In this document: one piece after another, positions 4,549-27,187 of the stretch
How the letters are laid out: every line of letters starts with the position of its first letter
Numbering within the stretch: the stretch's first letter is position 1
DNA from: Candidatus Pacearchaeota archaeon
GTDB taxonomy: Archaea; Nanobdellota; Nanobdellia; Pacearchaeales; GW2011-AR1
Direction: 5' to 3'
Assembly (NCBI GenBank): GCA_018304985.1
Contig: JAGVWP010000041.1
Coordinates: 5,642 to 37,641 of the forward strand
Length of the DNA: 32,000 nucleotides
Notes under the pieces: generated by a model
What the model saw: only the letters and a program-made list of their open reading frames with translations
Database searches by the model: none
What the model was told of the DNA's origin: nothing
Position numbers and translations under genes: made by a program

Positions 4549-4727
4549 GTGTGGGATATTGTATTTAGTTGAATGATATCATTGAAATCAAATAATATTT
4601 AAAAACTTAAAATGAGAGTGTTTAATGCTTATAATAAAGAGGTAGATCATAAGGTAAATTTTATGATAAAAATCTTGGCTATTACAAGGAGATGTCATAA
4701 GAAGAACCTAGGTTCTTTTTATTAAAG

Positions 4728-5162
4728 ATGAGGTGTTTGTATTGTCAGCATCCAGAGACAAAGGTGACTGACAAACGCGAATCAGCTGAAGGCACTAGAA
4801 GAAGGCGTGAATGCTTAAAGTGTGGCAAGAGATTCACAACATATGAGAATGTTAAGGAAATTGAGAGATTTGTTGTTAAAAAAGATGGAAGAAGGGAGCC
4901 GTTTAACAGGGATAAAGTTTTCCTTGGAATAATCAAGGCCTGTGAAAAACGTGATGTAAGCCATGAAAAAATTGAGAGTATTGTAAAGGAATTTGAAGAA
5001 AAAATACAAAATCAAAAAGAGATTCCAACTAAAAAAATAGGTGAATTTGTTATGAATAAATTAAAAAAAATTGATAAAGTTGCATATATCAGGTTTGCAA
5101 GTGTTTACAAAGATTTTGAAGATGTAAGTGATTTTAAGAATATAATGAGGGAGGTGAAATAA
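4728..5162 (+). CDS. nrdR: NrdR transcriptional repressor (zinc ribbon + ATP-cone)
   Basis: N-terminus MRCLYCQHPETKVTDKRESAEGTRRRRECLKCGKRFTTYE matches the NrdR Zn-ribbon signature (C-x2-C ... RRRR.C..C..RFTT.E), followed by an ATP-cone (VVKKDGRREPFNRDK...). Stop lies 1 nt before the RNR ATG. Confidence 0.9.
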   Translation: MRCLYCQHPETKVTDKRESAEGTRRRRECLKCGKRFTTYENVKEIERFVVKKDGRREPFNRDKVFLGIIKACEKRDVSHEKIESIVKEFEEKIQNQKEIPTKKIGEFVMNKLKKIDKVAYIRFASVYKDFEDVSDFKNIMREVK

Positions 5163-8153: not shown

Positions 8154-8257
8154 GTTTTCTGTGAATCTCCTTATGGCAAGACCATAAAGCATCCAAAAAT
8201 TATCTAAACTTAATATTTAATTTTATTATTTATTCGAAAACATACAATATTAAATAA

Positions 8258-8300
8258 TAAAAGACAACCAATGTTTTTCTTTATCAAACTTTCCTTTTAT
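8258..8300 (+). repeat. motif-1 copy B (hairpin element AAAGACAACCAATGTTTTTCTTTATCAAACTTTCCTTTT)
   Basis: Aligns with copies at 12272, 16882, 17667(-), 20411 and 27041. This copy is not attached to an ORF stop. Confidence 0.6.
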
Positions 8301-8436
8301 TAGGAAAAATTTAGCCTTATTTACATTCATTAATATTTAATCTATAACAGAACTAATCTTGATTATTTTATATTTTTGCTTATGGATTTATCCTTAAGGC
8401 AAGATCTTAGAGTATTATGAATCATAAAATAATGTA

Positions 8437-11900: not shown

Positions 11901-12274
11901 ACATGGTAAGCAATAAAATGCATGCTCGCGCATCTGGAAAAGTTGCACTTCTTACAAGACAGCCTATTGAGGGAAGATCAAGAGGAGGAGCATTAAGATT
12001 GGGGGAAATGGAGCAGCAGGCATTGGTTGCTCACGGAGCTTCATTGCTATTAAAGGAAAGATACGATTCTGATAAAGTTGTAATTCATATTTGCTCAAAG
12101 TGCGGAGCTTTGGGAGTTAAGGACACATTAAGGAATAAAACTTACTGTCCTGTGTGCAATTCAACAGAGATTGAAGATGTTGAAGTTTCATATGCATTTA
12201 AATTACTTGCGGAGGAATTACTCGGATTGCATATAGCAACAGGATTTGAGCTGAAAAACAAGTATGAAGAGTAA
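8999..12274 (+). CDS. rpoB: DNA-directed RNA polymerase subunit B (unsplit)
   Basis: 1091 aa with motifs GYFIVNGNERI, ETPEGTEIGLRKNL, HGQKGV, GEMEQQALVAHGAS and a C-terminal Zn ribbon CSKCG...CPVC. Confidence 0.97.
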   Translation: MGRGLKLKLNFDDHVVIQKYLSENSLVESNLTSFNNFVERRMQEIVDEISENIEQDEVEIKLGKINIQKPNVVESDGSTTSITPAEARIRNLTYSAPLFLEISIKQDGQVENQEVEIGRIPIMVKSKPCNLLGMSKEELESNYMDPEDPGGYFIVNGNERIMIMTEDLAANQPFIENIKGKLTLRLFSSRGAYRIPITITESNEGIIEVSFSRFKNIPAIVLMKALGMLKESDIAKNIDKETDSVIVNLYEYAKVSSSEEAMMMIAEKTSVQGTKKEILDRIKQRLDSYLLPHIGLKKEKRVDKAITLCKLIKQFLIFKENPNLKVDKDHYANKRVRLSGDLLADLFRVNLNILVRDIKYSLQKTLKRKKFYSIKTIAKSTLFSHRIKSAIATGSWIGEKKGITQNMDKTNHLSIISQLQKVSSTLPGEQTNFMARTLHPTHFGRFCPVETPEGTEIGLRKNLSIMARISSRLVMDEENIVKELEKSGLNKENGGLDVFFNGMFIGGVSNYKKFISEIREKRRQQRLPEELSIRHNKELDIIVIYGDTGRVLRPLIVVDNGIARLTDEHIEKIKKDEMKWGDLIKQGIVEYLDASEEENAFIALNNSELIAEHTHMEIDRVAFLGPITSLVSFGNHDQSSRLIRGSKTQKQGLGLYSANYLVRIDTDVSLLHYPQQPIVRSFVYDAMNVYPSGQNVVVAVMTYEGYNMEDAIVVNKSSVDRGFGRSTFFRPYTSVELNYAGGLADEILIPTKDIAGYRTEDSYRYLEDDGIVYPEANLKAGEVVIGKVSPPKFLSEAKDINIRAKKESSSVIRQEEKGIIDGVFITLDEEGNKIVQVRTRDPRIPELGDKFSTAHGQKGVIGAIVPEENIPFTSRGIRPDVIFNPHGIPGRMTVGYLLELMTGKIGCLKGEIMNGTSFEKIEVNKLENELKGLGFRYDGKETMYNGITGRMMEAKIYIGDMYYMKLKYMVSNKMHARASGKVALLTRQPIEGRSRGGALRLGEMEQQALVAHGASLLLKERYDSDKVVIHICSKCGALGVKDTLRNKTYCPVCNSTEIEDVEVSYAFKLLAEELLGLHIATGFELKNKYEE

Positions 12275-12310
12275 AAGACACCAATGGTTTCTTTTACGAA
12301 GCTTCCTTTT
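12272..12310 (+). repeat. motif-1 copy C, starting at the rpoB stop codon
   Basis: TAAAAGACACCAATGGTTTCTTTTACGAAGCTTCCTTTT. Confidence 0.6.
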
Positions 12311-12315
12311 GGGGG

Positions 12316-12338
12316 ACGTCTCCTACAGGGAGACATCA
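12316..12338 (+). other. GC-rich hairpin in the rpoB 3' region
   Basis: GACGTCTCC-TACAG-GGAGACATC (9 bp, 1 mismatch). Part of the direct repeat GGAC(G/A)TCTCCTACA(G/A)GGA at 12314-12331 and 12355-12372. Confidence 0.5.
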
Positions 12339-12734: not shown

Positions 12735-15700
12735 ATGATAATAGTAAAAAAACAAATAAAAGCATTGAAATTTAGCCTGCTTAGCCCGGAGAAGATTAAA
12801 AAAATTTCATGCGCCAAGATAATCACTCCAGAACTTTATGATATGGACGGATATCCAGTTGATGGAGGCTTGATGGATTTAAGGCTTGGTGCCATAGATC
12901 CTGGAGTAAAATGCAGAACCTGCGGAGGAAGATTAAAAGAATGTCTAGGACATCCTGGAAGCATTGAATTTGCAAGGCCTGTTGTGCATGTAAAATATGT
13001 CCCGATAGTTTATACATTTTTAAGAAGTTTTTGCAATAACTGCGGAAGAATACTTTTAGATGAGGAAAATATAAAGAAATTAAGCCCTGCGCAAAGAATG
13101 AAAAAATCAAAAGATGCTAAGAAATGCCCTTACTGCCAGACTGTTCAGGAAAAAATCAGAATTGAAAAGCCAACATCATTCATGCTTGGAAAGAAAAGAA
13201 TTTTCCCGCCGGAAATAAGGGCAATTTTAGAAAAAATAACTGATGATGACTGCAGATTAATAGGAGTAAACCCAGAAACATTTAGGCCAGAATGGGGAAT
13301 TTTAACAGTTCTTTTAGTCCCTCCAGTAACTGTAAGACCAAGTATTACTTTAGAATCTGGAGAAAGAAGTGAAGATGACCTAACCCACAAGCTTGGAGAT
13401 ATAATAAGATCAAATCAAAGACTTTGGGAAAATTTGAATGCAGGAGCTCCAGAAGTTATTATTGATGATTTATGGGATTTGCTTCAATATCATGTTACAA
13501 CATTTTTTGACAATACAATTTCAAGAATTCCTCCTGCAAGGCACAGAAGCGGACAGCCATTAAAGACAATTACTGAAAGAATCAAAGGAAAAGAAGGAAG
13601 AATAAGGCATAACCTTGCTGGAAAAAGAGTTAATTTCTCATCAAGAACTGTAATTTCTCCTGATCCGTCTTTGCAAATAAATGAGGTTGGGATTCCTTAT
13701 GAGATTGCAGAAGTTCTTACAGTTAATGAAGAAGTTACTACACTTAATATGGAATATTTAAAAAAATTAATAATGGCAGATCATTATCCTGGAGCAAATT
13801 ATATTATAAGGCCTGATGGAAGAAGAAAGAAAATATCTCCTGAACTTAAAAAAGAAATAATTGAAGAGTTAAAACCAGGCTACTTTGTTGAAAGACATTT
13901 GCAAGACGGAGATATTGTATTATTTAACAGGCATCCGAGCCTTCACAGAGGAAGTTTAATGGCTCATTATGTAAAAGTTCTTCCTTACAGAACATTCAGG
14001 CTTCATCCGGCTGTTGTATTTCCGTATAACGCTGATTTTGACGGAGATGAAATGAATGTCCACGTACCTCAAACTGAAGAAGCAAGGGCAGAAGCAAGAA
14101 TTCTTTTAGATGTAAGCAAAAATTTAATGAGTCCGAAAAATAACACATCCCTAATAGGAACAATTACAGATGCTGTTACAGGAAATTATCTTCTGGGGTT
14201 AGCTGAAGTGACAAAGGCAGAAGCGCAGCAGCTTCTTTTTAATGCAGGAATTATCTTAAAACAGGATAAGAAAACCTTTAATGGTAAGGATGTATTTTTG
14301 GAAATTCTGCCACCAATCAGCAAGTCTCTTGCACAGGAAATTGAGAAAAAAGACCTAACACATGAATATACATTTGGAGTTGAAAATGAAAAAATTACAA
14401 AGCAGGTGGATAAAGAAATTGGAAGAGAAGAGACCATAAATGCGATTAAAAAAGCATTTACTCTTGGAACTAATTATCTTTCAAGAAGAGGATACACTAT
14501 TTCTCTTGAAGATATTAATGTTAATGAGAAAACGAAAAAGATAACACAGGATATTATAAAAGATGGTGAAGATAAAACAAAAGAAGTAATTGATTCTTAT
14601 AATAATGGATCTCTTGAAATTATCCCCGGCAAAACACTTGATGAATCACGGGAAATAAAAATACTTCAGACACTTAATGAAGTAAGAACAAAAATCGGTA
14701 AGGCTGTAAAAACAGAATTCCCTGAAGACAATCCTGTGAACCATATGATTATGTCGGGAGCTGGAGGAAATATCCTGAATATCACACAAATTGCCTGTTC
14801 AGTAGGGCAGAAATCTTTATGGTCTCAAAGAGTTAATTTTGGTTATAGTGAAAGGACATTATCATCATTCAAGCAGCATGATCTCTCTCCTAAAGCACAT
14901 GGATTTGTTTATTCTTCTTATATGAACGGCCTTCAGCCTCAGGAATTTTTCTTTGATGCAATTTCGGGAAGAGATGGATTAATGGATACTGCTTTAAGAA
15001 CTCCTAAATCCGGATATTTATACAGAAGATTGGCTAATGCCCTGCAAGACTTGAGAATTGAATATGATGGAACTGTAAGAGATGCTGTTGGGCAGATAAT
15101 TCAATTTAAATACGGAGATGATGGAATTGATGTTGCAGGAGCTCATTTTAATAAACAGGTTTCTCCTGGAGAGGCAATTGGAATTGTTACTGCGCAAAGT
15201 TTTGGAGAACCATCAACACAAATGGTATTGAATGTATTTCATTTTGCAGGAGTTCAGGAAATGCAGGTTACTTTAGGACTCCCAAGGCTTATAGAAATAT
15301 TTGATGCAAGAAAAATACCAACAACGCCTGCAATGGAAATTCATCTTGACAAGGATTTTAATGATGAGAAAGATGCAAAGGTTCTAGCAGAAAAAATAAA
15401 AGAAGCCAAGCTTAAAGAAATATTGTCTGAAGCAAAAATAAATTTCTCAGACAAAAAAATTGAATTTATTATTGACAATAAAGCGATAAAACACATACAT
15501 ATGTCAATAAACACTGTTGCTGAAAAAATTTCCGGGAAGGGCAAAATAAATGTTAAAAATGATTCTATAATCCTAAGTGTTCCAGATCTTGGATTTAAAG
15601 AAATTTACAAGCTCAAAGAAAAATTAAAGGAGAGCATAATTTCAGGAGTAAAGGGAATAAGGCAGGTTTTAATTGTAAAAAGAGAGAAAGGTTATGTAAT

Positions 15701-16211
15701 ACTTACAGCTGGATCAAATTTAGCAGAAATAATAAAAATCAAGGGAGTTAATCCTGAAAGAACAATTACAAATGATATTTATGAGATGGCAAATGTTTTT
15801 GGAATTGAATCTGCAAGGCAGGTTATTATGAATGAAATAAGGAAAGTTCTTGGATCACAGGGATTGGATATTGATGAAAGGCATTTAAAACTTGTAGCAG
15901 ATGCAATGACAATTGACGGAGAAATCAGAGGCATGACGAGAATGGGAATCATTGCAAGAAAAAGCAGTATTCTAGCCAAAGCAAGTTTTGAAACTCCTAT
16001 AAAACATTTTGTTAATGCTACAATTAAAGGAGGAAAGGACGAATTATTAAGTGTTATTGAAAATATCATTCTTAACCAGCCTGTTCCTGTTGGTACAGGG
16101 CTTCCTGGATTAATGGTTAAAATTACAGGCCCTTTAGTGAGGGAAAAAGGCAGGAAAACTGGGAAAAGGGAAAATAAAAACAATGAATATATAAATATAC
16201 CAAACATTTAA
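12735..16211 (+). CDS. rpoA: DNA-directed RNA polymerase subunit A, with A' and A'' parts fused in one ORF
   Basis: 1158 aa. N-terminal Zn site CRTCGGRLKECLGHPG, catalytic NADFDGDEMN, bridge helix GRDGLMDTALRTPKSGYLYRRL, then in the same frame the A''-type trigger loop AQSFGEPSTQMVLNVFHFAGV and GLPRLIEIFDAR. Confidence 0.95.
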   Translation: MIIVKKQIKALKFSLLSPEKIKKISCAKIITPELYDMDGYPVDGGLMDLRLGAIDPGVKCRTCGGRLKECLGHPGSIEFARPVVHVKYVPIVYTFLRSFCNNCGRILLDEENIKKLSPAQRMKKSKDAKKCPYCQTVQEKIRIEKPTSFMLGKKRIFPPEIRAILEKITDDDCRLIGVNPETFRPEWGILTVLLVPPVTVRPSITLESGERSEDDLTHKLGDIIRSNQRLWENLNAGAPEVIIDDLWDLLQYHVTTFFDNTISRIPPARHRSGQPLKTITERIKGKEGRIRHNLAGKRVNFSSRTVISPDPSLQINEVGIPYEIAEVLTVNEEVTTLNMEYLKKLIMADHYPGANYIIRPDGRRKKISPELKKEIIEELKPGYFVERHLQDGDIVLFNRHPSLHRGSLMAHYVKVLPYRTFRLHPAVVFPYNADFDGDEMNVHVPQTEEARAEARILLDVSKNLMSPKNNTSLIGTITDAVTGNYLLGLAEVTKAEAQQLLFNAGIILKQDKKTFNGKDVFLEILPPISKSLAQEIEKKDLTHEYTFGVENEKITKQVDKEIGREETINAIKKAFTLGTNYLSRRGYTISLEDINVNEKTKKITQDIIKDGEDKTKEVIDSYNNGSLEIIPGKTLDESREIKILQTLNEVRTKIGKAVKTEFPEDNPVNHMIMSGAGGNILNITQIACSVGQKSLWSQRVNFGYSERTLSSFKQHDLSPKAHGFVYSSYMNGLQPQEFFFDAISGRDGLMDTALRTPKSGYLYRRLANALQDLRIEYDGTVRDAVGQIIQFKYGDDGIDVAGAHFNKQVSPGEAIGIVTAQSFGEPSTQMVLNVFHFAGVQEMQVTLGLPRLIEIFDARKIPTTPAMEIHLDKDFNDEKDAKVLAEKIKEAKLKEILSEAKINFSDKKIEFIIDNKAIKHIHMSINTVAEKISGKGKINVKNDSIILSVPDLGFKEIYKLKEKLKESIISGVKGIRQVLIVKREKGYVILTAGSNLAEIIKIKGVNPERTITNDIYEMANVFGIESARQVIMNEIRKVLGSQGLDIDERHLKLVADAMTIDGEIRGMTRMGIIARKSSILAKASFETPIKHFVNATIKGGKDELLSVIENIILNQPVPVGTGLPGLMVKITGPLVREKGRKTGKRENKNNEYINIPNI

Positions 16212-16466: not shown

Positions 16467-16883
16467 ATGATTAAGACAATAGATATGAAGGTGATGAGAT
16501 ACATAAACTTATTCTCGAGAATAAGCGGGATAACCCCGAAGCACTGCTTTATTTATAATTCCACTGCCATATTTACCGTGCCTGAAAATAAATTGTCAAT
16601 GGCAATTGGAGATAATGGAAAAAATATAAAGCATATGAGCGAGATTATCCAGAAAAAGGTCAAGGTTGTTCTTATACCTAAAGATGTAAGTGATGCTGAA
16701 AAGTTTATTTCTACAATAATTTATCCCACTCAGATTAAAAGCGTTGAGATTAATGGAAATCAGCTTATTATTAATGCAGGACAGCAGAATAAGGCGATGT
16801 TAATCGGCAGAAACAAGTCGAGGCTTGAAGAGATAAGGAAAATAATCAAGGATTATTTTGGAAAGGAAGTCAAAATTGTTTAA
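16467..16883 (+). CDS. nusA: archaeal NusA-like termination factor (two KH domains)
   Basis: 138 aa. MRYINLFSRISGITPKHCF... and the GxxG-like loops IGDNGKNIKHM and IGRNKSRLEEI fit the archaeal NusA KH-KH pattern. Canonical position after rpoA. Confidence 0.8.
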   Translation: MIKTIDMKVMRYINLFSRISGITPKHCFIYNSTAIFTVPENKLSMAIGDNGKNIKHMSEIIQKKVKVVLIPKDVSDAEKFISTIIYPTQIKSVEINGNQLIINAGQQNKAMLIGRNKSRLEEIRKIIKDYFGKEVKIV

Positions 16884-16925
16884 TAATAAAGACAACCAAG
16901 GTTTTCTTTATGAAACTTTCCTTTT
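16882..16925 (+). repeat. motif-1 copy D; left arm of the inverted pair flanking the Skp-like ORF
   Basis: AATAATAAAGACAACCAAGGTTTTCTTTATGAAACTTTCCTTTT overlaps the nusA stop codon. 41/44 identical to the reverse complement of 17667-17710. Confidence 0.8.
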
Positions 16926-17016
16926 AAATTTTGATTTAATTATAAAGTGGTGGGAAAATTATTTATACTCATTCATATATATTACCTAATTTTTTAAGAT
17001 AAAAAAGAACAAAATA

Positions 17017-17454
17017 ATGAACTCAAAAAAATCGCTGACAAATATTTTAACTGCTAGCGCGGTAGGAATTGGTTCTGTTTTTGGAATTTATCCAAGTGTT
17101 TCTTTTGATGACTACAGGCCAAGAATTGAATTTGACAATATGGGAAAAGCTGAAGCGGTGACTCGTTACGGAGTTGAAAAAAAAGATGCGAAATATGCAA
17201 ACCCCGCATACATAGAATACAGCAAAGCGTTAACTGAGAGTAAGTATTACAAAGAATTGATAAAATTGAAAGAAAATGACACTAGAAGAGATAGAGTTTT
17301 AAGCCAATTGCTAACTAGTGTTAATAAGGCCTTGGCAGAATCTGCCGCAAAAGGCGGATATGACATCGTAGTTGACAAAGGTGATAAGGGATCAGATAAA
17401 TATACAGACATAACTGCAAAAGTCATAAAGAAACTGCAGGAGAACGAGAAATAA
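17017..17454 (+). CDS. Skp/OmpH-like secreted chaperone candidate
   Basis: 145 aa with N-terminal hydrophobic segment ILTASAVGIGSVFGIY. RIEFDNMGKAEAV and the C-terminal VNKALAESAAKGGYDIVVDKGD...YTDITAKVIKKL parallel E. coli Skp (KIAIVNMGSLF... and VKSVANSQDIDLVVDANAV...DITADVLKQV). Motif recall only. Confidence 0.5.
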   Translation: MNSKKSLTNILTASAVGIGSVFGIYPSVSFDDYRPRIEFDNMGKAEAVTRYGVEKKDAKYANPAYIEYSKALTESKYYKELIKLKENDTRRDRVLSQLLTSVNKALAESAAKGGYDIVVDKGDKGSDKYTDITAKVIKKLQENEK

Positions 17455-17666
17455 AAATAGTTTAGATTAAAAAATAAAAATAATAGCTTGTTCTGCCGAT
17501 TTTGTTCTGGAAATCAGGCATACAAGTTACTCTTGTTTGCTTCATCAACTCAGTACTCGTTGATTATGCAGTTATTTAGTAATTTGAAACTAACAAACCT
17601 GATAGTCTATAAATTAAAATCAGCTAAATTAAATAAATGTTAAACCAGGTTAAATTTTTTATTTAA

Positions 17667-17710
17667 GGAAGGAAAGTTTGATAAAGAAAACCTTGGTTGT
17701 CTTTATTATT
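17667..17710 (-). repeat. motif-1 copy E (inverted); right arm of the pair flanking the Skp-like ORF
   Basis: Reverse complement is AATAATAAAGACAACCAAGGTTTTCTTTATCAAACTTTCCTTCC. Confidence 0.8.
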
Positions 17711-17728
17711 GTATACTTTTCAAACTTA

Positions 17729-17765
17729 ATTTTTGATATCATACCATATCCTTGCCTCATTTTAA
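17729..17765 (+). repeat. element-2 copy
   Basis: TTTTTGATATCATACCATATCCTTGCCTCATTTTAAT. Confidence 0.5.
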
Positions 17766-17829
17766 TGTATAAGCCACCGATATTTTGCCAATTAACAACT
17801 CAGATTCTGTAAGGTTAAAAAGTGATGGC

Positions 17830-17943
17830 TTTTTAAGGCTTAATCCACTTAAATATAGTCGTTTTAGAAGCTCAATTTTTATGCTAATAAATTTACTAAA
17901 AAATTAAAATTTCTATTTTTAAGGCTTAATTTACTTAAATTTA
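17830..17943. repeat. two ~27-nt direct repeats TTTTTAAGGCTTAAT(C/T)(C/T)ACTTAAAT, 86 nt apart
   Basis: Copies at 17830-17856 and 17916-17943, in the 3' spacer of the secretin-like gene. Confidence 0.7.
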
Positions 17944-18036
17944 ATACTTTCATCAGTTTCATCATTACAAAATATCACCCGTAGAGTTAACAGAACCACA
18001 ACTCAATACTTTAATATTATATAAATTATATAAGAT

Positions 18037-19473
18037 TTATTGTCTTTTTAGCCTTTTGAAAAATCCTTTATTTTCACTTTTTTCTTGTTTAACTGGTTGA
18101 ATATTTAACTCTTCAATTAAAGGTTCTTGTATTCTTTCCTGCATTCCAACAGAATCTTGCCTATCTATATCGTGAACTTCCATGAAATACAGCAGTTCAG
18201 AAGTATTTTTCTCAATTTCTCTCGATGTTGTAGCGCTTTTAATCAAAGGAATTTTATTCAATCCGGGAATGCCTCTGTTAACGGATTTATATCGGGTGTT
18301 TGTTGATGTTCCTATAAGATAGGTTGCCCCATTTTGCAAACAAAATTCAGATGTAAGATTTGCTTCTCTAAACACAGGCACTTGTTCTTTGCCTACTAAG
18401 GCAATTGATTCGCCTGATTTTGCTTCAAGTAATTTTATTGTTGTAAAACCCTTTTCATTTGCGAAGGGAGATAATTTTAATTGCGGGCCGACTTCCCGGT
18501 ATTGCGTTCCTATAACAATTGCTGCTGCAGGAGTTAAAGAGGTTTGTTGGTATGGCACGGCATTAATATTTCTAAATTCTGCAGTTGTTCCATTTGAAAC
18601 AATAACATCTGTATCAGATAAGGTTTCTGTTCTTCCATGGCTGTCAAGGAATTTTATCGCGCCCTCATATGTCCACTTGTTAGGCGCTCTTCCCAAAATT
18701 GTAAAATTTCCGTTTCCATCTTTGTTGAGAAATGGATTAACAGAAATACCTGTTGTTAATGGATTGCCTTGAGGGTTGCTTGGCAACAACAAGCTAAAAG
18801 CACTCATGCCATTTTTCAAAATTTTCAAGGCCATATCTCTATCATAAGTATTATCATTAAAATATTCCACTATTTTTAGCCTTATCCTTATTTGTTTAGG
18901 TTCTATATCAAAATTATTAATTAATCTTGAAATTAAGCCAAAATTTTCCCCGAATTTAACATCCTGCCCCCGAAATAACAGCATATTTTGTGAAGGATAA
19001 GGAGTTATTTCAACATCCGGGGCTGGCGGGAGGTATTTAGCAAGAATAGCTGCAATATCTGGAGCAGCATTTCTGCAGCGATATGAAATTAAAACATCGC
19101 CCTTGCCATCGTTATTTCCGTCTAAATCAATATAATTCGCATTAATCTCTGGTATAAAAAATGCTCCATTGTTTTTTGCCTCCGGTGTTTCTCCCTGAAG
19201 ATATGCCCTGTTATTTGCAATTGTATATGGATGGGAAGTTGCATGCCTTGATTCATCATTATGGAGTTTTTGAGACGCCTCATTCATCGCTGGAGGCTCT
19301 AAATTCAAGTTTTCATCATTTCTTAAAACTTCATGAACCGGATCATTTAATGCGCTGCTTAAATACTTAACTTCATCTTTTAGATTTCTAAAAGTCGCGC
19401 AACCTGCAAAAGTGTAAATCATCAAGCCAGCCAATCCTGTTGAAATACCTTTTTTAACTCGGCCTGTTATCAT
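18037..19473 (-). CDS. secretin-family (GspD/PilQ/CpaC-like) lipoprotein candidate
   Basis: 478 aa. N-terminal hydrophobic stretch ends in the lipobox-like TFAGC. FDIEPKQIRIRLKIVEY matches the LD..QV.IE..IVEV boundary motif. C-terminal blocks IKFLDSHGRTETLSDTDVIVSNGTTAEFRNINAVPY, YREVGPQLKLSPF, VPVFREANLTSEFCLQNGATYLIG and NRGIPGLNKIPLIKS...NTSELLYFMEV follow the order of secretin-domain blocks. Confidence 0.65.
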   Translation of the reverse strand: MITGRVKKGISTGLAGLMIYTFAGCATFRNLKDEVKYLSSALNDPVHEVLRNDENLNLEPPAMNEASQKLHNDESRHATSHPYTIANNRAYLQGETPEAKNNGAFFIPEINANYIDLDGNNDGKGDVLISYRCRNAAPDIAAILAKYLPPAPDVEITPYPSQNMLLFRGQDVKFGENFGLISRLINNFDIEPKQIRIRLKIVEYFNDNTYDRDMALKILKNGMSAFSLLLPSNPQGNPLTTGISVNPFLNKDGNGNFTILGRAPNKWTYEGAIKFLDSHGRTETLSDTDVIVSNGTTAEFRNINAVPYQQTSLTPAAAIVIGTQYREVGPQLKLSPFANEKGFTTIKLLEAKSGESIALVGKEQVPVFREANLTSEFCLQNGATYLIGTSTNTRYKSVNRGIPGLNKIPLIKSATTSREIEKNTSELLYFMEVHDIDRQDSVGMQERIQEPLIEELNIQPVKQEKSENKGFFKRLKRQ

Positions 19474-19960: not shown

Positions 19961-19983
19961 ACCATCCTCAATTGTGTAGAATT

Positions 19984-20406
19984 ATGGGGTTAATGAATGC
20001 TAGAAAAATCATAAAGAAAAGCAATAAATTTAGATGGAGAGAGCATAAATATAAATCCAGAATGCTTAATCTTTATGCTAAAGCAGATCCTTTAGAAGGA
20101 GCTAGCCAAGCCAAAGGATTAGTAATTGAAAAAGTCCAAAAAGAAGCAAAACAACCAAATTCTGCGATGAGAAAATGTTGCAAAGTGCAGCTGACTAAAA
20201 ACGCCAAGACAGTTACTGCATTTATTCCTGGCAATTTAGCGCAGAGATTTATTGATGAGCATGATGAAGTTGTAATAGAAAGAATTGGCGGAAAGCAGGG
20301 AAGAACAAAAGGAGATATTCCGGGAGTCAGATTTCAAGTTATAAAAGTAAATGACCAACCTTTAAGACTATTAGTTAAAGGGAAGATAGAAAAGGGAAGA
20401 AGATAA
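19984..20406 (+). CDS. rps12: 30S ribosomal protein S12
   Basis: [45 protein letters not shown]...[27 protein letters not shown] is the archaeal S12 pattern. Start placed at the first ATG; the ORF track starts at a TTG at 19972. Confidence 0.93.
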
Positions 20407-20410
20407 AAAT

Positions 20411-20450
20411 AAAAAGAACCTACGGTTCTCTTTATGAACTCTCCCTTGAG
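20411..20450 (+). repeat. motif-1 copy F, just after the rps12 stop
   Basis: AAAAAGAACCTACGGTTCTCTTTATGAACTCTCCCTTGAG, with the perfect hairpin AGAACC-TAC-GGTTCT. Confidence 0.6.
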
Positions 20451-20652
20451 AAAAATAAAAAAACGAAAAATAAATATTCAAATGAGACATATCAGAGAAA
20501 TTACTCATGAATATGAAACAGCATTTAAAGGATATATTGAAGGCAAATCAATATTTTATATTGATAGGAAAGAAAATAAAGCAATGGAAAGGGCTTCAGA
20601 ATATGAGGAGTATATGAGATCATTAAATAATAATACAAAAGACGAATATTAA
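20434..20652 (+). CDS. hypothetical 72-aa protein between rps12 and rps7
   Basis: ORF only. Its ATG lies inside motif-1 copy F (alternative ATG at 20482), and its stop lies 1 nt before the rps7 ATG. Confidence 0.35.
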   Translation: MNSPLRKIKKRKINIQMRHIREITHEYETAFKGYIEGKSIFYIDRKENKAMERASEYEEYMRSLNNNTKDEY

Positions 20653-21438: not shown

Positions 21439-21930
21439 TTAACTCACCAACTTCACAAAATTATCCCTAGCAGAATTAACTTTTTCATTACTTAATTCAC
21501 TTATTAATAACTTCATTTTAACTAAAAAATCTTCGGTTTTTAAGATCATTTCATTGCATGATTCTTTAGTTACCTTAACTATTTGCTGAGTTTCTACATA
21601 ATATTGTTTGTCTATTCTTTCTTCTTTAGCCCAAGAAATTATTTTTACTAGTCCTTTATTTTCAGATAATTTATCAAATAGAATTATTGATGCAGAATGA
21701 TTCTCAGATTTAATTCCAATTTTGAATAATAAAGATAGTAATGAATTATACATACAATAATAAGCTTCAGAAGTGGAATTCTCGTAAAGTTGGCTCTGAA
21801 ATAATATCTTTGCCGATTTAAGACAGTTATCTGCTTTAATCAGATAGGAAGATTTCATCTCTTCTGAAGATTCGACAAGTTCAATTACTCCTTTTCTTTT
21901 AAGCTTCTTTAAAAAATTCAACTCTTTCAT
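21439..21930 (-). CDS. HEPN-domain protein (putative toxin of an MNT-HEPN pair)
   Basis: 163-aa helical ORF, 32-nt overlap with the upstream NTase gene. The region KSAKILFQSQLYENSTSEAYYCMYNSLLSLLFKIGIKSENHS resembles PF05168-type HEPN proteins. Confidence 0.55.
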   Translation of the reverse strand: MKELNFLKKLKRKGVIELVESSEEMKSSYLIKADNCLKSAKILFQSQLYENSTSEAYYCMYNSLLSLLFKIGIKSENHSASIILFDKLSENKGLVKIISWAKEERIDKQYYVETQQIVKVTKESCNEMILKTEDFLVKMKLLISELSNEKVNSARDNFVKLVS

Positions 21931-22468
21931 AAAAATCCTCCAACCCTCTTATAATTATATGATTCTTTATAATTTCTTTAATTAATAAAGATTTAGTATC
22001 AAATTTCCCTATTTTAATACTCAATTTAGAATTTATATCTTTCACGCTATTTTTTATATTATTATCATTAGTTTCTAAATAAATATCAATATCACTTTCC
22101 TTCTTTGGAACTCCTTTAGCATAACTTCCAAATAAGATTATCATTCCTTTTGAGAAATCTTTTTTAATATCCTCTAAAATTATGGATAATTCTGGATGTT
22201 TTTTCAATAGACTATTTAATTTGTGAATTTCAGCAGAATAAATATAATTTTTAGATTTTAAATTATTTTTAATAAAAAATATTTTATTTTTACCTTCTTT
22301 CTTATAATCTAAGACATTCTCCTTTAATAATTCATTAATTTTTCTTAGGATTGTGGAGTGGGATTCATTGAGAGTTCTTGCTATCTCTCTTAGATGAGAT
22401 TTATTCTTTAACAAAACCAATATTATTTCTAATTCTAAATTGTTCTTATTTTGAACCATATGTATCAT
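21899..22468 (-). CDS. winged-helix HTH fused to a minimal nucleotidyltransferase (MNT-type antitoxin)
   Basis: N-terminal ArsR-like wHTH (SHLREIARTLNESHSTILRKINELLKENVL) followed by the NTase signature MIILFGSYAKGVPKKESDIDIYL. Confidence 0.7.
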   Translation of the reverse strand: MIHMVQNKNNLELEIILVLLKNKSHLREIARTLNESHSTILRKINELLKENVLDYKKEGKNKIFFIKNNLKSKNYIYSAEIHKLNSLLKKHPELSIILEDIKKDFSKGMIILFGSYAKGVPKKESDIDIYLETNDNNIKNSVKDINSKLSIKIGKFDTKSLLIKEIIKNHIIIRGLEDFYERVEFFKEA

Positions 22469-24256: not shown

Positions 24257-27040
24257 ATGGCACAAGAAGAAAAAAAAGCACAAAAGATTGAAAGGCTGAC
24301 TAATAACCAAGAAACTATCAGAAATATCTGCACATCTGCGCATATACACCATGGAAAATGCATTAGCGGAGACTCAAGAGTTATGCTATCAGATGGCAGC
24401 GCAATAACTGCCAGAGAGGTATATGAAGAAGTTGCAAAAAATGGCAAGAGATATGAGGATAATGAAGAACATACAGTATTCATACCTAGAGACAAAATAA
24501 CTATATTCTCCTTAAATAAAGAAACTGGGAGCATTGAAAAGAAGCTTGTTCAGTATGTCTGGAGGCTTAAAGGTGGCAATACAATAAAAACAACTTTAAG
24601 AAATGGATTTGAAATATCAACAACGCCAGAACATAAGTATATAATTTTTGAAAGTATGAAATTCACTGAAAAACCTGCCTGTGAATTAAAAATTAATGAT
24701 TTAATAGTTTGTGCAAGGAATATTGACTTCTTTTGGAAAGAAAAAAAAGCTAATAAAGAATATTATAATTATAATAAAATCGAAATTGATAATGGAAATG
24801 GTCAAAAGTTAATTCAATTATTAAAGAATCCTTATAATGATCTAGCATTTGTTGAAGTTAAAAAAATAGAAGCAGGTTTTGAAGAGGTTGTTTATGATTT
24901 TACAATTCCTGAAACACATAATTTCATTGCAGAAGGAATGGTTATATGCAATACAGCCTTCACAGACAATCTATTGGCAGCTGCAGGAATGATGGCTGCA
25001 AAATCAGCCGGAGATTTAGAAGCTGGAATGGCAACATGGCAGCATTCAGATGAGCAGGAAAGATTAATGACTGTTGATGCTGCAAATGTTTCAATGGTTC
25101 ATGATTTTCACGGCAAGGAATATTTAATTAATTTAATTGACACTCCTGGACATGTTGATTTTTCTGGAAATGTAACAAGAGCTATGAGAGCTATTGATGG
25201 CACGATTGTTTTAGTCTGCGCAAGCGAAGGAATCATGCCACAAACAGAAACTGTTTTAAAACAGGCATTAAGAGAAAGAGTTAAGCCAATTTTATTTATT
25301 AACAAAGTTGACAGGCTGATTAAAGAGCTGAAAATGACTCCTGAGCAAATGCAGGAAAGATTTATCAAGATTTACAAAGATTTTAATAAATTAATTGAGA
25401 GAATTGCAGAGCCTGAATACAAGGAAAAATGGCAGGTTGATATTAATGAAGGAAGTGTTGCTTTTGGAAGCGCCAGAGATAATTGGGCATTATCACTTCC
25501 GTTTATGAAAAAAAAGGGAGTTACTTTCAAAAATATCTTTGAATTATACAGTATGGATGAAGAGCAAAGAAAAGAATGGACATGGAAAAATGCCCCTTTA
25601 TTCGAAGTAATTTTAGATATGAGCATCAAGCATCTTCCAAACCCAATTGAAGCTCAGAAATACAGAATTCCAAAAATCTGGCATGGAGATTTAGAAAGTG
25701 AATTCGGAAAGAGTTTGCTTAATTGCGATCCAAAAGGAGAATTAGCATTTATAATTACAAGAATTGTTATTGATCCAAGATCTGGGAAAGAAATTTCAGC
25801 AGGAAGATTATTTTCAGGCAGTTTAGAACCGGGAATGGAAGTTTATCTTAATAATGAGAAAAAAAATCAAAGAGTTCAGCAGGTTCTTGTTTATAATGGA
25901 ATAAAACCGGAGCAGGTTGAACATATTCCTGCTGGAAATGTTCTTGCAATTGCAGGAATTGTTGGAGATGTTGGAGAAACAATAACCTTGAAACCAGAAA
26001 CACCTTTTGAAGAAATTAAGCATATTTTTGAGCCAGTTATTACAAAAGCTATTGAGCCGAAGAAAATGGTTGATTTGCCAAAGCTTGTAGAAGTTTTAAG
26101 AAAAGTTGTAAAAGAAGATCCAAGCCTAAAAGTTGAAATTAATGAGGAAACAGGAGAGAATCTTGTTTCAGGAATGGGAGAACTGCATTTAGAAATTATT
26201 GAAAACAGAATAACAACTGAAAAAGGGCTGGAGATTAAAACTTCTCCTCCGATTGTAGTTTACAGAGAGACGGTTGTAAGAAAATCCAAGGTTCAGGAAG
26301 GAAAATCTCCCAACAAACATAATTCTTTTTTCATAACTGTTGAGCCTTTAGAAGATGAAGTTTATGATGCAATTAAGAAAGGAGAAATTTCAGAAAGAAG
26401 ATATAAGAAAAGAGATGACACAATGTTCAAAAAATTATCTGAATTGGGCATTTCAAACGATGAGATAAGAAATGTCAGAGATGTTTACAAAGGATGTGTT
26501 TTTTTAGATGACACAAGGGGAGAAGTGCATATGATTGAAGTAATTGACTTGGTTTTAGATGCTTTTGAGCAGGTTATTGATGCAGGGCCTTTAGCAAGAG
26601 AGCCGTGCATGAAAATGAAACTAAGGCTTGCGGATATAAAACTTCACGAAGATGCAATTCATAGAGGGCCTGCGCAGGTTTATCCTGCAATAAGAGATTC
26701 TATTTCAAGCGCTATGAGAGATGCTGCAATTTCGCTTTTTGAGCCACTGCAAGTTCATTTAATTGAAGCGCCTTCAGAATACATGAGCACTGTTACTAAA
26801 TTAGTTTCAAGCAAGAGGGGGCAGTTAATTGATGTTCAGCAGGATGAAGTTGGAGTTAAAGTAACTGCAAAACTGCCTGTAGCTGAAATGTTAGGATGGA
26901 GCAGTGATTTAAGATCAGCAACAGAAGGACGAGGTGTTTCAAGTTTAGAAGACCAAAGCTTTGAAAAAATGCCAACTGAATTGCAATCAGAAGCTGTGAG
27001 AAAAATCAGAAACAGAAAAGGATTGGCGGAGAATCAATAA
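24257..27040 (+). CDS. fusA: translation elongation factor aEF-2, precursor containing one intein
   Basis: IRNI...AHIHHGK | intein | TAFTDNLLAAAG restores the G1 P-loop. Also DTPGHVDF, NKVDR and the diphthamide-loop motif HEDAIHRGPAQ. 927 aa minus 198 aa gives ~729 aa, the normal aEF-2 size. Confidence 0.95.
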   Translation: MAQEEKKAQKIERLTNNQETIRNICTSAHIHHGKCISGDSRVMLSDGSAITAREVYEEVAKNGKRYEDNEEHTVFIPRDKITIFSLNKETGSIEKKLVQYVWRLKGGNTIKTTLRNGFEISTTPEHKYIIFESMKFTEKPACELKINDLIVCARNIDFFWKEKKANKEYYNYNKIEIDNGNGQKLIQLLKNPYNDLAFVEVKKIEAGFEEVVYDFTIPETHNFIAEGMVICNTAFTDNLLAAAGMMAAKSAGDLEAGMATWQHSDEQERLMTVDAANVSMVHDFHGKEYLINLIDTPGHVDFSGNVTRAMRAIDGTIVLVCASEGIMPQTETVLKQALRERVKPILFINKVDRLIKELKMTPEQMQERFIKIYKDFNKLIERIAEPEYKEKWQVDINEGSVAFGSARDNWALSLPFMKKKGVTFKNIFELYSMDEEQRKEWTWKNAPLFEVILDMSIKHLPNPIEAQKYRIPKIWHGDLESEFGKSLLNCDPKGELAFIITRIVIDPRSGKEISAGRLFSGSLEPGMEVYLNNEKKNQRVQQVLVYNGIKPEQVEHIPAGNVLAIAGIVGDVGETITLKPETPFEEIKHIFEPVITKAIEPKKMVDLPKLVEVLRKVVKEDPSLKVEINEETGENLVSGMGELHLEIIENRITTEKGLEIKTSPPIVVYRETVVRKSKVQEGKSPNKHNSFFITVEPLEDEVYDAIKKGEISERRYKKRDDTMFKKLSELGISNDEIRNVRDVYKGCVFLDDTRGEVHMIEVIDLVLDAFEQVIDAGPLAREPCMKMKLRLADIKLHEDAIHRGPAQVYPAIRDSISSAMRDAAISLFEPLQVHLIEAPSEYMSTVTKLVSSKRGQLIDVQQDEVGVKVTAKLPVAEMLGWSSDLRSATEGRGVSSLEDQSFEKMPTELQSEAVRKIRNRKGLAENQ
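24359..24952 (+). mobile_element. mini-intein (198 aa) in the aEF-2 P-loop
   Basis: Block A CISGDSRVMLSDG, block B GFEISTTPEHKYII (T..H), block F VVYDFTIPETHNFIAEG, block G MVICN followed by +1 Thr. No LAGLIDADG or HNH endonuclease motifs in the ~80-aa linker. Confidence 0.85.
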
Positions 27041-27080
27041 TAAAAGACACCTAAGGTTTCTTTTATGAATCTTCCTCTTA
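27041..27080 (+). repeat. motif-1 copy G, directly after the aEF-2 stop
   Basis: TAAAAGACACCTAAGGTTTCTTTTATGAATCTTCCTCTTAA. Confidence 0.6.
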
Positions 27081-27187
27081 AAATATCAATGGTTCTTCTT
27101 ATGGCATCTCCTTTTAGAATGCCATAGTTCTCAAAAAATACAAAATCTATAGATTTAAATAGTAGCATTATTCTGAAAATAAATAAA

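Follow-up and report, generated by a model that had tools for sequence, protein, structure and literature searches.

Secretins and Skp are hallmarks of the Gram-negative bacterial envelope, and the locus described here raises the question of why genes resembling both lie side by side among the core transcription and translation genes of an archaeon, and whether the inverted repeats bracketing one of them had any part in bringing them there. The window, a 32,000-nt stretch of a contig from a tiny Candidatus Pacearchaeota (DPANN) archaeon of groundwater, carries the archaeal gene blocks rpoH-rpoB-rpoA-nusA and rps12-rps7-EF-2 on either side of the pair. The upstream block ends with an archaeal nusA of 138 aa (16467-16883, + strand; TIGR01952 nusA_arch, 66.9 bits, and a KH_2 match), a gene order shared by relatives, and the downstream block opens with rps12 (19972-20406, + strand; PF00164, 136.9 bits). 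In L123, a relative without the pair, this junction is empty and rps12 follows nusA immediately.

The first gene of the pair is a 145-aa ORF (17017-17454, + strand) in which the preliminary description had recognised short Skp-like peptides, all of them present in the sequence. Its product, which we term mini-Skp, consists of an N-terminal hydrophobic export segment followed by a Skp body with a short helical hairpin. Against PF03938 (OmpH) it scores 31.5 bits (E 2.5e-7), 0.9 bits short of the cut-off of 32.4 and over residues 85-140 only, and 13 of the 15 family members match the same model (E<0.01). Searched against the PDB as a single sequence mini-Skp gave no significant match (E 0.95); the family profile retrieved OmpH and Skp structures at 7.7e-6 and 0.02-0.03, respectively, with the C-terminal half of these structures matched well and the N-terminal strand weakly. 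The AlphaFold2 (AF2) monomer is predicted with pLDDT values of 82-95 over residues 57-145 and has helices at 68-81 and 91-113 only. Skp/OmpH structures make up all of the top nine fold matches to this model, at a weak Foldseek E value (0.03); they include 1u2m_A (probability 1.00, TM 0.69 normalised to target length, rmsd 3.2 Å over 80 columns) and 8gl8 (SkpA). The proposed Skp/OmpH relationship is supported by sequence profile and fold, as is the correspondence of the C-terminal part (residues 85-140), seen in both the Pfam and the PDB alignments. The segment RIEFDNMGKAEAV (residues ~35-47), previously taken for the first strand of the Skp body, is absent from most homologues and modelled with pLDDT <50; profile alignment and AF2 model place that strand at residues 62-66 (PAYIEY). 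One further candidate homologue (P0040, 1103 aa) was left out as a chance match to its repeated GGYDIIIDG motif.

Every family member carries a basic-plus-hydrophobic N-terminal segment, which suggests an extracytoplasmic location; five of the 15 homologues have RRxF Tat-type signal motifs and one matches PF10518. Profile positions 46-73 align with OmpH residues 9-35 and positions 60-124 with OmpH residues 83-145, leaving OmpH residues ~36-82 without a counterpart, so that the helical arms are shorter by about 48 residues. Long tentacle helices of the kind that surround a client cavity are accordingly seen neither in the profile alignment nor in the AF2 model. Profile and model together support mini-Skp as a genuine, truncated Skp/OmpH homologue that has kept the body fold, and which is probably a trimer. 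Since arms of this length appear unable to surround a complete secretin subunit, the classical Skp cavity mechanism is doubtful. The gene has a candidate promoter of its own in AAGTGGTGGGAAAATTATTTATA (16946-16970, + strand), a BRE/TATA-like block ~50-70 nt ahead of the ATG of which 23/23 bases are the same in L001 despite diverged flanks. Near-identity with L001 is also found over ~75 nt of 3′ flank (17455-17530, + strand) and ends near 17530, marking a possible 3′ UTR or terminator.

The convergent neighbour (18037-19473, - strand, 478 aa) had been called secretin-like, and its position, orientation and assignment were all confirmed. PF00263 matches at 68.3 bits against a cut-off of 27.5, the family profile reaches PilQ/GspD structure chains at 1e-14, and secretins account for all of the top 40 PDB fold matches (E 6e-14 to 3e-8) to a model that is itself of only moderate quality (mean pLDDT 57.6, core ~70). 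By profile and modelled fold the protein is a clear secretin homologue: a lipoprotein-type signal (…FAGC25) precedes one putative N-type domain, and the secretin domain makes up the C-terminal part. The lipobox residue Cys25 is invariant in 17 homologues, the Secretin_N match lies below its cut-off (E 0.017), and the model contains one beta-alpha-beta-beta-alpha unit at 126-206 while the N-terminal ~78-100 residues are unmodelled. The family is isolated, with 23 close members followed by a gap to E 1e-4. Its genes are neighboured by RNA polymerase, nusA and ribosomal genes or by unrelated metabolic genes. We saw no adjacent secretion ATPase, platform or pilin genes, and nothing near the pair that would encode a Bam-type partner or parts of a type II secretion or type IV pilus system; only L136 has a DUF87 ATPase, 2 kb away. 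To our knowledge no outer membrane has been recognised in these archaea. Our literature search found no paper describing archaeal secretins, those of DPANN or Pacearchaeota included, and nothing relevant on OmpH in DPANN. Secretins have been treated as a diderm component that is absent from monoderms, and no secretin has been described for archaeal type IV filament systems (PMC6668835). The 3′ flank of the secretin gene also holds two 52-nt direct repeats (17830-17967, unstranded), 73 % identical and containing the near-palindrome TTAAGGCTTAA, which were found by repeat search; this stretch has no counterpart in L001.

The suggestion that the two genes form a module was upheld by their linkage across relatives. 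They are adjacent in eight Pacearchaeota lineages, and in six of these (the window lineage, L001, L011, L012, L019 and L020) the nusA-rps12 junction is the site; four of the six show both flanks, L019 the nusA side only and L020 only rps7. At this junction the secretins diverge to 40-46 % identity, and in the closest case, L001, the Skp-like protein is 92-93 % and the secretin 87 % identical to that of the window. At other loci the pair is convergent in L138 and divergent in L140. A ninth genome (GCA_038869895.1) has the Skp-like gene after nusA and the secretin on a separate contig, and three lineages have a secretin without an adjacent Skp-like gene. Judged by the family HMM, neither the ORF of 137 aa that neighbours the secretin in L014 nor the small ORFs of L136 and L137 are Skp-like; in these last two lineages the secretin is followed by a protein combining a TM segment with a coiled coil. 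The pair is vertically inherited within the core RNA-polymerase/ribosomal cluster.

Such tight linkage also bears on what mini-Skp does. Instead of a transient chaperone it could be a lasting component of the secretin machine, structural or pilotin-like, that caps the cell-proximal side for docking, an option that we rate as rather improbable: the shortened arms would be too short for a client cavity, and SkpA, one of the fold matches, is a Skp homologue fixed in the type 9 secretion translocon. A permanent subunit sits less easily with genes that form separate transcription units, whether convergent or divergent, and with the three lineages in which the secretin lacks an adjacent Skp-like gene.

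The Skp-like gene was noted at the outset because of the 44-nt arms on its two sides (16882-16925 and 17667-17710), which are indeed inverted copies with three differences (41/44). Our repeat search extended them to 52 nt (16872-16923 and 17669-17720) at 90 % complementarity, where none is expected by chance, and within them 30 nt form a core shared exactly by both arms, a match seen in none of 100 shuffles. An inverted repeat of this quality is what favours the earlier proposal that the arms terminate a mobile cassette by which the Skp-like gene, or the pair, was brought in, a reading that is already contradicted by the comparison with relatives and that we hold to be the least probable of all. 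The arms bracket the Skp-like gene only, one of two linked genes, leaving the secretin gene outside. The same arrangement occurs in L001, the nearest relative with the pair, without the right arm and with a homologous, diverged copy at the left-arm position; L023 has two copies in direct orientation, and among more distant genomes L011, L012, L019 and L020 carry the pair without any copy. The empty junction of L123, where a single copy had been envisaged as a sign of past insertion, contains none. Nor is there a transposase or integrase among the window ORFs, a GC anomaly in a region of even GC content, or a match to the repeat core in viral contigs, while the same sequence recurs at more than 100 unrelated sites. 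The repeats are therefore not cassette ends; each arm belongs to a dispersed element.

This element is ~40-57 nt long: an imperfect palindrome, or hairpin, leads into a T-rich tail. A 22-nt core was found in 111 metagenome stretches, and the exact-copy set (n=114) joins these 111 loci with the window; as the scan was not exhaustive, and did not take in the window's own contig, these counts are lower bounds (one of the loci, L005, is from a JGI metagenome). The left arm (16878-16934, + strand; covariance model (CM) R1, 72.3 bits), which carries the exact 30-nt core, begins at the three in-frame TAA codons that end nusA (16881-16889), confirming the reported overlap with the nusA stop, and forms the hairpin AAAGACAACC/GGTTTTCTTT followed by TTTATGAAACTTTCCTTTT. 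A second perfect copy, the right arm (17658-17714, - strand; CM R1, 69.2 bits), runs in the direction of the secretin gene, the stop of which is 316 nt upstream. The inversion thus reflects no more than gene direction: the + strand copy trails nusA, and the - strand copy is oriented like the convergent secretin gene.

Within the window the element stands directly after the stops of four co-oriented genes, nusA and three others that are followed by variant copies: rpoB (12263-12320, + strand, CM 49.6 bits), rps12 (20401-20458, + strand, CM 64.4 bits, stem AGAACC/GGTTCT) and EF-2 (27032-27089, + strand, CM 64.0 bits). In L001 it likewise follows the rps12 and nusA stops, and in 18 exact copies overall a long co-oriented ORF ends at or near the element. 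A further copy (8250-8307, + strand, CM 63.6 bits) separates an unnamed ORF of 92 aa, whose stop it follows at a distance of ~100 nt, from a convergent tRNA-Lys. The stem co-varies, with 88.7 % of cells paired and 20 double-change cells, a value that none of 500 shuffles reached. In position and structure, as a hairpin with a T-rich tract after co-oriented stops, the element is terminator-like.

Read in the opposite sense, the same copies look like promoters, since 79 of the 114 then have, just downstream, either an ATG at 3-4 nt or the 5′ end of a tRNA at 2-6 nt. In 57-60 exact copies GTCTT is followed after 3-4 nt by the ATG of a long ORF, with the TATA-like TTTGATAAA at -30 to -22 from that ATG, and at the 22 copies preceding tRNAs the spacing is similar. 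Twenty-three different housekeeping gene families are preceded in this way, and in the larger families ~40 nt remain near-invariant across lineages whose downstream orthologues fall to 38-57 % identity. The sole start-type copy in the window is a weak, diverged one (4675-4726, - strand, CM 29 bits, E 9e-4), the reverse complement of which ends 1 nt before the ATG of nrdR (4728). We are led to regard the element as a punctuation signal found all over such genomes; its palindrome could equally be a protein-binding site. The literature search returned nothing relevant on the element sequence or on DPANN leaderless, promoter or tRNA signals.

The two usages leave two readings of the arms. They might be outward-firing promoters, the left directed on the - strand into the 3′ end of nusA and the right on the + strand toward the 3′ end of the secretin gene, whose products would be antisense or non-coding RNAs modulating the expression of both. 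The BRE/TATA-like character and fixed spacing of the reversed element argue for this, as do the range of housekeeping families behind it, variant copies in front of nusA and EF-2 in L123, and the right arm itself, which on the + strand is a perfect match to the promoter-like consensus GGAAAGTTTGATAAAGAAAACCTTGGTTGTCTTTAT. The family as a whole has its TATA-like box ~26 nt upstream of a start; both arms and the copy at 8250-8307, however, lead into ATT and no gene, and downstream of none of the three is the sequence conserved. A 34-codon frame that could be opened from the ATT at 17708 after the right arm was rejected as a gene, having no ATG and nothing conserved after the other two copies. 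Rfam searches, covering the window at the gathering threshold and 16860-18060 at E≤1, returned nothing but the tRNA-Lys, and ARAGORN placed no tRNA near the repeats; a sigma-70 promoter/terminator scan, based on a model not applicable to archaea, gave background level. The copies after rpoB, rps12 and EF-2 also tell against the promoter reading, their TATA part being degraded while hairpin and T-rich tail are kept, and there is no obvious use in firing back into essential genes. We therefore consider outward promoters unlikely. The preliminary suggestion of paired terminators stands in so far as the arms are oriented like the copies after the rpoB, rps12 and EF-2 stops, and is weakened by the promoter-like placement of the reversed element at most other sites.

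Two inverted copies on one transcript will pair, and both the minimum-free-energy and the centroid fold of 16860-17730 hold a long-range stem between the arms (z = -6.1). Conceivably this stem forms in a nusA read-through transcript, looping out the Skp-like mRNA and controlling its processing or translation, yet pairing follows automatically from any two inverted copies of a dispersed element. The stem is missing in L001 and L023 despite the same genes, and a conserved promoter-like block separates the left arm from the ORF; we judge such a role very improbable.

The reading that we prefer, with a probability of roughly 0.65, is that a conserved envelope module of an exported mini-Skp and a lipoprotein secretin sits beside arms that are copies of a dispersed gene-end element and say nothing of the module's history. 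The pair would be a two-gene envelope module within the otherwise universal nusA-rps12 junction of a Pacearchaeota archaeon. Both proteins would be exported across the cytoplasmic membrane, where we infer that secretin subunits fresh from export are held or docked by mini-Skp, probably a trimer; the lipid-anchored secretin would then form a gated, multimeric channel on the outside of that membrane. Both arms most likely mark transcript ends and, with the conserved promoter block of the Skp-like gene, would insulate that gene.

The broader claim that a DPANN lineage builds a bacterial-type secretin outside its cytoplasmic membrane with the aid of a dedicated mini-Skp is tentative, and we place it somewhat below even odds. 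If true, either these archaea would have an outer envelope layer, so far undescribed, for which a gated pore is required, or the symbiont would place the pore in its host's envelope; secretins would then extend beyond diderm bacteria and their phages. The pair offers a testable handle on the envelope of uncultured, probably symbiotic archaea and on their exchange of material with partners, while a near-invariant 40-nt element whose orientation tells gene starts from gene ends may serve as a key for annotating DPANN transcription units.

Among known systems, the reversed element recalls Nanoarchaeum equitans, in which consensus promoters at a fixed distance give rise to leaderless tRNAs. The fixed 2-6 nt to tRNA 5′ ends and 3-4 nt to ATGs are alike, but here ~40 nt are near-invariant and the other sense of the element trails stop codons. 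With intrinsic terminators and REP-like hairpins it shares a short co-varying hairpin and a T-rich tail after stops, and it differs from them in its second, promoter-like usage; archaeal termination is known to depend on oligo-T rather than on hairpins. Mini-Skp resembles Skp/OmpH (PF03938; E. coli Skp 1SG2 and 1U2M, OmpH 9YJU and 9NHX) as a small exported protein with a body modelled as strand, helical hairpin, strand and C-terminal helix, and its C-terminal motif GYD-VV....DIT..VI..L aligns with both. It is distinguished by its archaeal origin, a mature part of only ~95-120 residues that lacks the ~48 arm residues, the Tat-type signals of some members and a Pfam score that narrowly misses the gathering cut-off. 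SkpA of the type 9 secretion extended translocon (8GL8) provides a parallel for a Skp fold tied to a dedicated channel and serving dedicated secretion rather than general outer-membrane protein biogenesis, although it is bacterial, has full-length arms and partners SprA, which is not a secretin. The 478-aa protein shares with GspD, PilQ, InvG and phage pIV a secretin domain above cut-off, the fold and a putative N-type ring domain, and departs from them in its archaeal host, its isolated family and its want of an adjacent ATPase, platform or pilin. Closest in kind are BfpB and HxcQ, which are lipoprotein secretins, the 478-aa protein likewise having an N-terminal lipobox cysteine.

Both ORFs of the pair were confirmed, the small one at 17017-17454 on the forward strand (145 amino acids, with the peptides quoted for it in the preliminary description) and its convergent neighbour at 18037-19473 on the reverse strand (478 amino acids). 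The neighbour, previously called secretin-like, is a clear secretin by Pfam (68.3 bits; cut-off 27.5), by the profile of its 17-member family against PilQ and GspD structures (1e-14) and by fold, the 40 best PDB matches of a model of moderate quality (core pLDDT ~70) all being secretins (best E 6e-14). The family is isolated: it comprises 23 proteins of 319-508 amino acids at E≤1e-57, and the nearest match beyond them lies at 1e-4. A lipobox-like cysteine (…AGC, …SGC, …TGC) is invariant in the family and the secretin is therefore predicted to be a lipoprotein. The 3′ flank of the gene carries two 52-nt direct repeats (17830-17881 and 17916-17967, 73% identical), each with the near-palindrome TTAAGGCTTAA; the whole ~330-nt stretch containing them is missing from L001, the closest relative with the same gene pair.

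Sequence profile and fold matches both identify the small protein as a truncated homologue of Skp/OmpH. Pfam OmpH aligns to residues 85-140 (E 2.5e-7, 31.5 bits, 0.9 bits below the curated cut-off) and PF03938 was matched individually by 13 of 15 family members. When 1.84 billion cluster representatives were searched exhaustively, 12 matched and no bacterial Skp was among them: 11 relatives (77-147 amino acids, ten of them 120-147) and entry P0040, rejected as a chance match. Profile searching added only a few further members labelled Pacearchaeota or Nanoarchaeota, one already carrying the NCBI name 'OmpH family outer membrane protein'. The family profile matched the solved OmpH chains 9YJU, 9NHX and 9YJT at 8e-6 to 3e-5; its matches to E. 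coli Skp (1U2M, 1SG2) were weaker, at 0.02-0.03. In the profile alignment an N-terminal segment (NPAYIEY..SKYYKEL) pairs weakly with the opening strand of OmpH and the beginning of its helix and a C-terminal segment pairs well over the remainder, whereas OmpH residues ~36-82 have no counterpart in the archaeal family. AlphaFold2, run on a 14-sequence alignment, modelled residues 57-145 at pLDDT 82-95 (strand 63-66, helices 68-81 and 91-113, strand 117-120, helix 133-143), and the best nine PDB fold matches were Skp/OmpH without exception, including the T9SS-associated SkpA, at modest E-values (best 0.03). The N-terminal motif first taken for the first body strand (residues 35-47) is not that strand; it is not conserved and falls in a low-confidence part of the model. 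Every family member has an export-type hydrophobic segment at the N-terminus, with RRxF Tat-like motifs in five. A BRE/TATA-like block 5′ of the gene (16946-16970) is identical in L001 and is probably the gene's own; ~75 nt of 3′ flank are also conserved.

The proposed two-gene module recurs across relatives, mostly at the nusA-rps12 site. The order nusA, Skp-like gene, convergent secretin, rps12 is also found in L001, L011/L018 and L012 (secretin identity to the window 87%, 44% and 46%), and the adjacent pair occurs in L019 (41%) and L020 (40%), on contigs showing one flank only, nusA and rps7 respectively. L138 has the pair away from this site, again convergent, and L140 has it at a further locus in divergent orientation, while in GCA_038869895.1 the Skp-like gene still follows nusA and the secretin lies on a separate contig. 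At L123 (RpoB 67% identical) only a 43-nt spacer separates nusA from rps12; this junction is an empty site. L136 and L137 have no Skp-like gene within 5 kb of the secretin, which is followed by a 380-396-amino-acid protein with a transmembrane segment and long coiled coil that may be an alternative partner. This protein (L136 6417-7607, L137 6372-7514) is encoded on the secretin strand, with its transmembrane segment N-terminal and a conserved C-terminal domain. A genome-collection scan found the secretin family in six records only, representing five distinct lineages, as one record duplicates the L001 contig in a bin labelled Woesearchaeota; four are labelled Pacearchaeota, one Woesearchaeota and one Paceibacterota, the last with a locus of the same archaeal gene order.

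Judged by its genes the window is archaeal: it holds rpoH, rpoB, unsplit rpoA, archaeal-type nusA, rps12, rps7, EF-2 and EF-1alpha, and GC content is even along the region. NCBI entry J4466_05705 (Candidatus Pacearchaeota bin) has the same sequence as the 145-amino-acid protein, which occurs on 24 or more contigs of several assemblies and so is not a chimera. RNA polymerase subunit A (12735-16211), split into A′ and A″ in most archaea, is one 1158-amino-acid ORF with Rpb1 domains 1-5, as in L001, L011 and L012. EF-2 (24257-27040) has 927 amino acids versus 729 in relatives and contains an intein (precomputed Pfam match Intein_splicing). A bacterial-type NrdR repressor (zinc ribbon and ATP-cone; 4728-5162) lies directly upstream of a ribonucleotide reductase gene. 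Two HEPN/HepT and nucleotidyltransferase (MNT) toxin-antitoxin-like pairs are present (1379-2319 and 21439-22468), the second right after rps7 and missing in L001.

The inverted repeat flanking the Skp-like gene is real, the 44-nt arms first described (16882-16925 and 17667-17710) differing at three positions. A repeat search extended them to 52 nt (16872-16923 and 17669-17720; complementarity 90%), with an exact 30-nt core matched in 0 of 100 shuffles. The left arm begins at the nusA stop, with three in-frame TAA codons at 16881-16889. Cassette-like acquisition had been suggested, but comparison of the loci shows that the arms do not mark the ends of a cassette. L001 has the same genes without the right arm and a diverged copy at the left-arm position; the spacer between the Skp-like gene and the secretin measures 254 nt there and 583 nt in the window. 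In L023, whose Skp-like protein is 86% identical, one copy follows nusA and another, 128 nt beyond the stop of the Skp-like gene, points the same way; L011, L012, L014, L019-L021, L136 and L137 have no copies, and neither does the L123 empty site.

Both arms are, by sequence, members of a dispersed element family. Exact matches to the 22-nt arm core stand in 111 metagenome stretches, which come from many contigs, these and the following counts being lower bounds from a scan that missed the window's own contig, and ~40 nt around it are near-invariant. In the reverse sense the element reads AAAGGAAAGTTT(G/C)ATAAAGAAAACCTTGGTTGTCTTTAT and combines a purine-rich block with a TATA-like box ending 20 nt before an ATG. 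A long-ORF ATG lies 3-4 nt downstream of 57 exact-core copies and a tRNA 5′ end 2-6 nt downstream of 22; 18 more are stop-type, lying at or close to the end of a long ORF of the same orientation, and 17 were unclassified. The ATG-type copies precede 23 housekeeping families, and the element is fixed although orthologues in the larger families diverge to 38-57% identity. In this use it resembles a promoter placed at a fixed distance ahead of leaderless mRNAs. The element before housekeeping ATGs (L025-L135; window 4675-4726) contains an imperfect palindrome. At L032, L043, L050, L067, L092, L101 and L116 partial copies (…CCAAGGTTTTCTTTATCAAACTTTCCTTTTAAGAG, period ~35 nt) are repeated in tandem, in up to ~6 units, upstream of full copies; at other loci a second motif, CTCAAGGCTGAT, lies between copies. 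The tRNA-type copies, which end before the mature 5′ end, include L027, L038, L040, L041, L060, L064, L069, L071, L072 and L073, with several more missed by ARAGORN. Their spacing suggests that these tRNAs are transcribed with little or no leader, as is reportedly the case in Nanoarchaeum equitans, which is without RNase P.

Within the window a covariance model located copies immediately behind the stop codons of rpoB, nusA (the left arm), rps12 and EF-2, ~100 nt past a 92-amino-acid ORF, at the right arm in the sense of the secretin gene, and, weakly and in start orientation, before nrdR (4675-4726). An unnamed ORF of 72-79 amino acids between rps12 and rps7 (window 20434-20652, L001 13295-13700, L123 8370-8597) has its ATG in the window within the copy trailing rps12. 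Stop-trailing variants have a degraded TATA part and keep the T-rich tail and a 10-bp hairpin with compensatory changes. Over 30 sequences 88.7% of the alignment cells of the stem were paired, 20 cells had changed on both sides, and 0 of 500 shuffles attained the observed value, though the alignment was fitted to the model and a palindromic protein-binding site would yield the same signal.

The Skp-like gene sits between the end of nusA and that of the convergent secretin, and the arms look inverted because each trails one of these genes in the sense of the copies after rpoB, rps12 and EF-2. We infer that the arms act as transcript-end punctuation. The earlier suggestion of paired terminators stands as to orientation, but the majority use of the element elsewhere is promoter-like. 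That use fits the main alternative, an unlikely one, in which the arms are outward-facing promoters, and so does the right arm's perfect match to the consensus; both arms are followed by ATT, not ATG, however, and nothing downstream of them is conserved.

In the best-supported model both proteins would be exported, the mini-Skp chaperoning or docking the secretin, which, lipid-anchored, would assemble into a multimeric channel. A classical Skp cavity is disfavoured because the mini-Skp arms are short. Such short helical arms are compatible with a structural role, by analogy with SkpA, the Skp-fold relative that plays a structural part in the T9SS translocon, a less likely reading. In the papers searched, no account turned up of archaeal secretins, OmpH in DPANN or the element, and a comprehensive type IV filament study regards secretins as a component of diderms that monoderms lack (PMC6668835). 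As both proteins belong to known superfamilies, what is new is a variant in an unexpected domain of life and not a new kind of protein.
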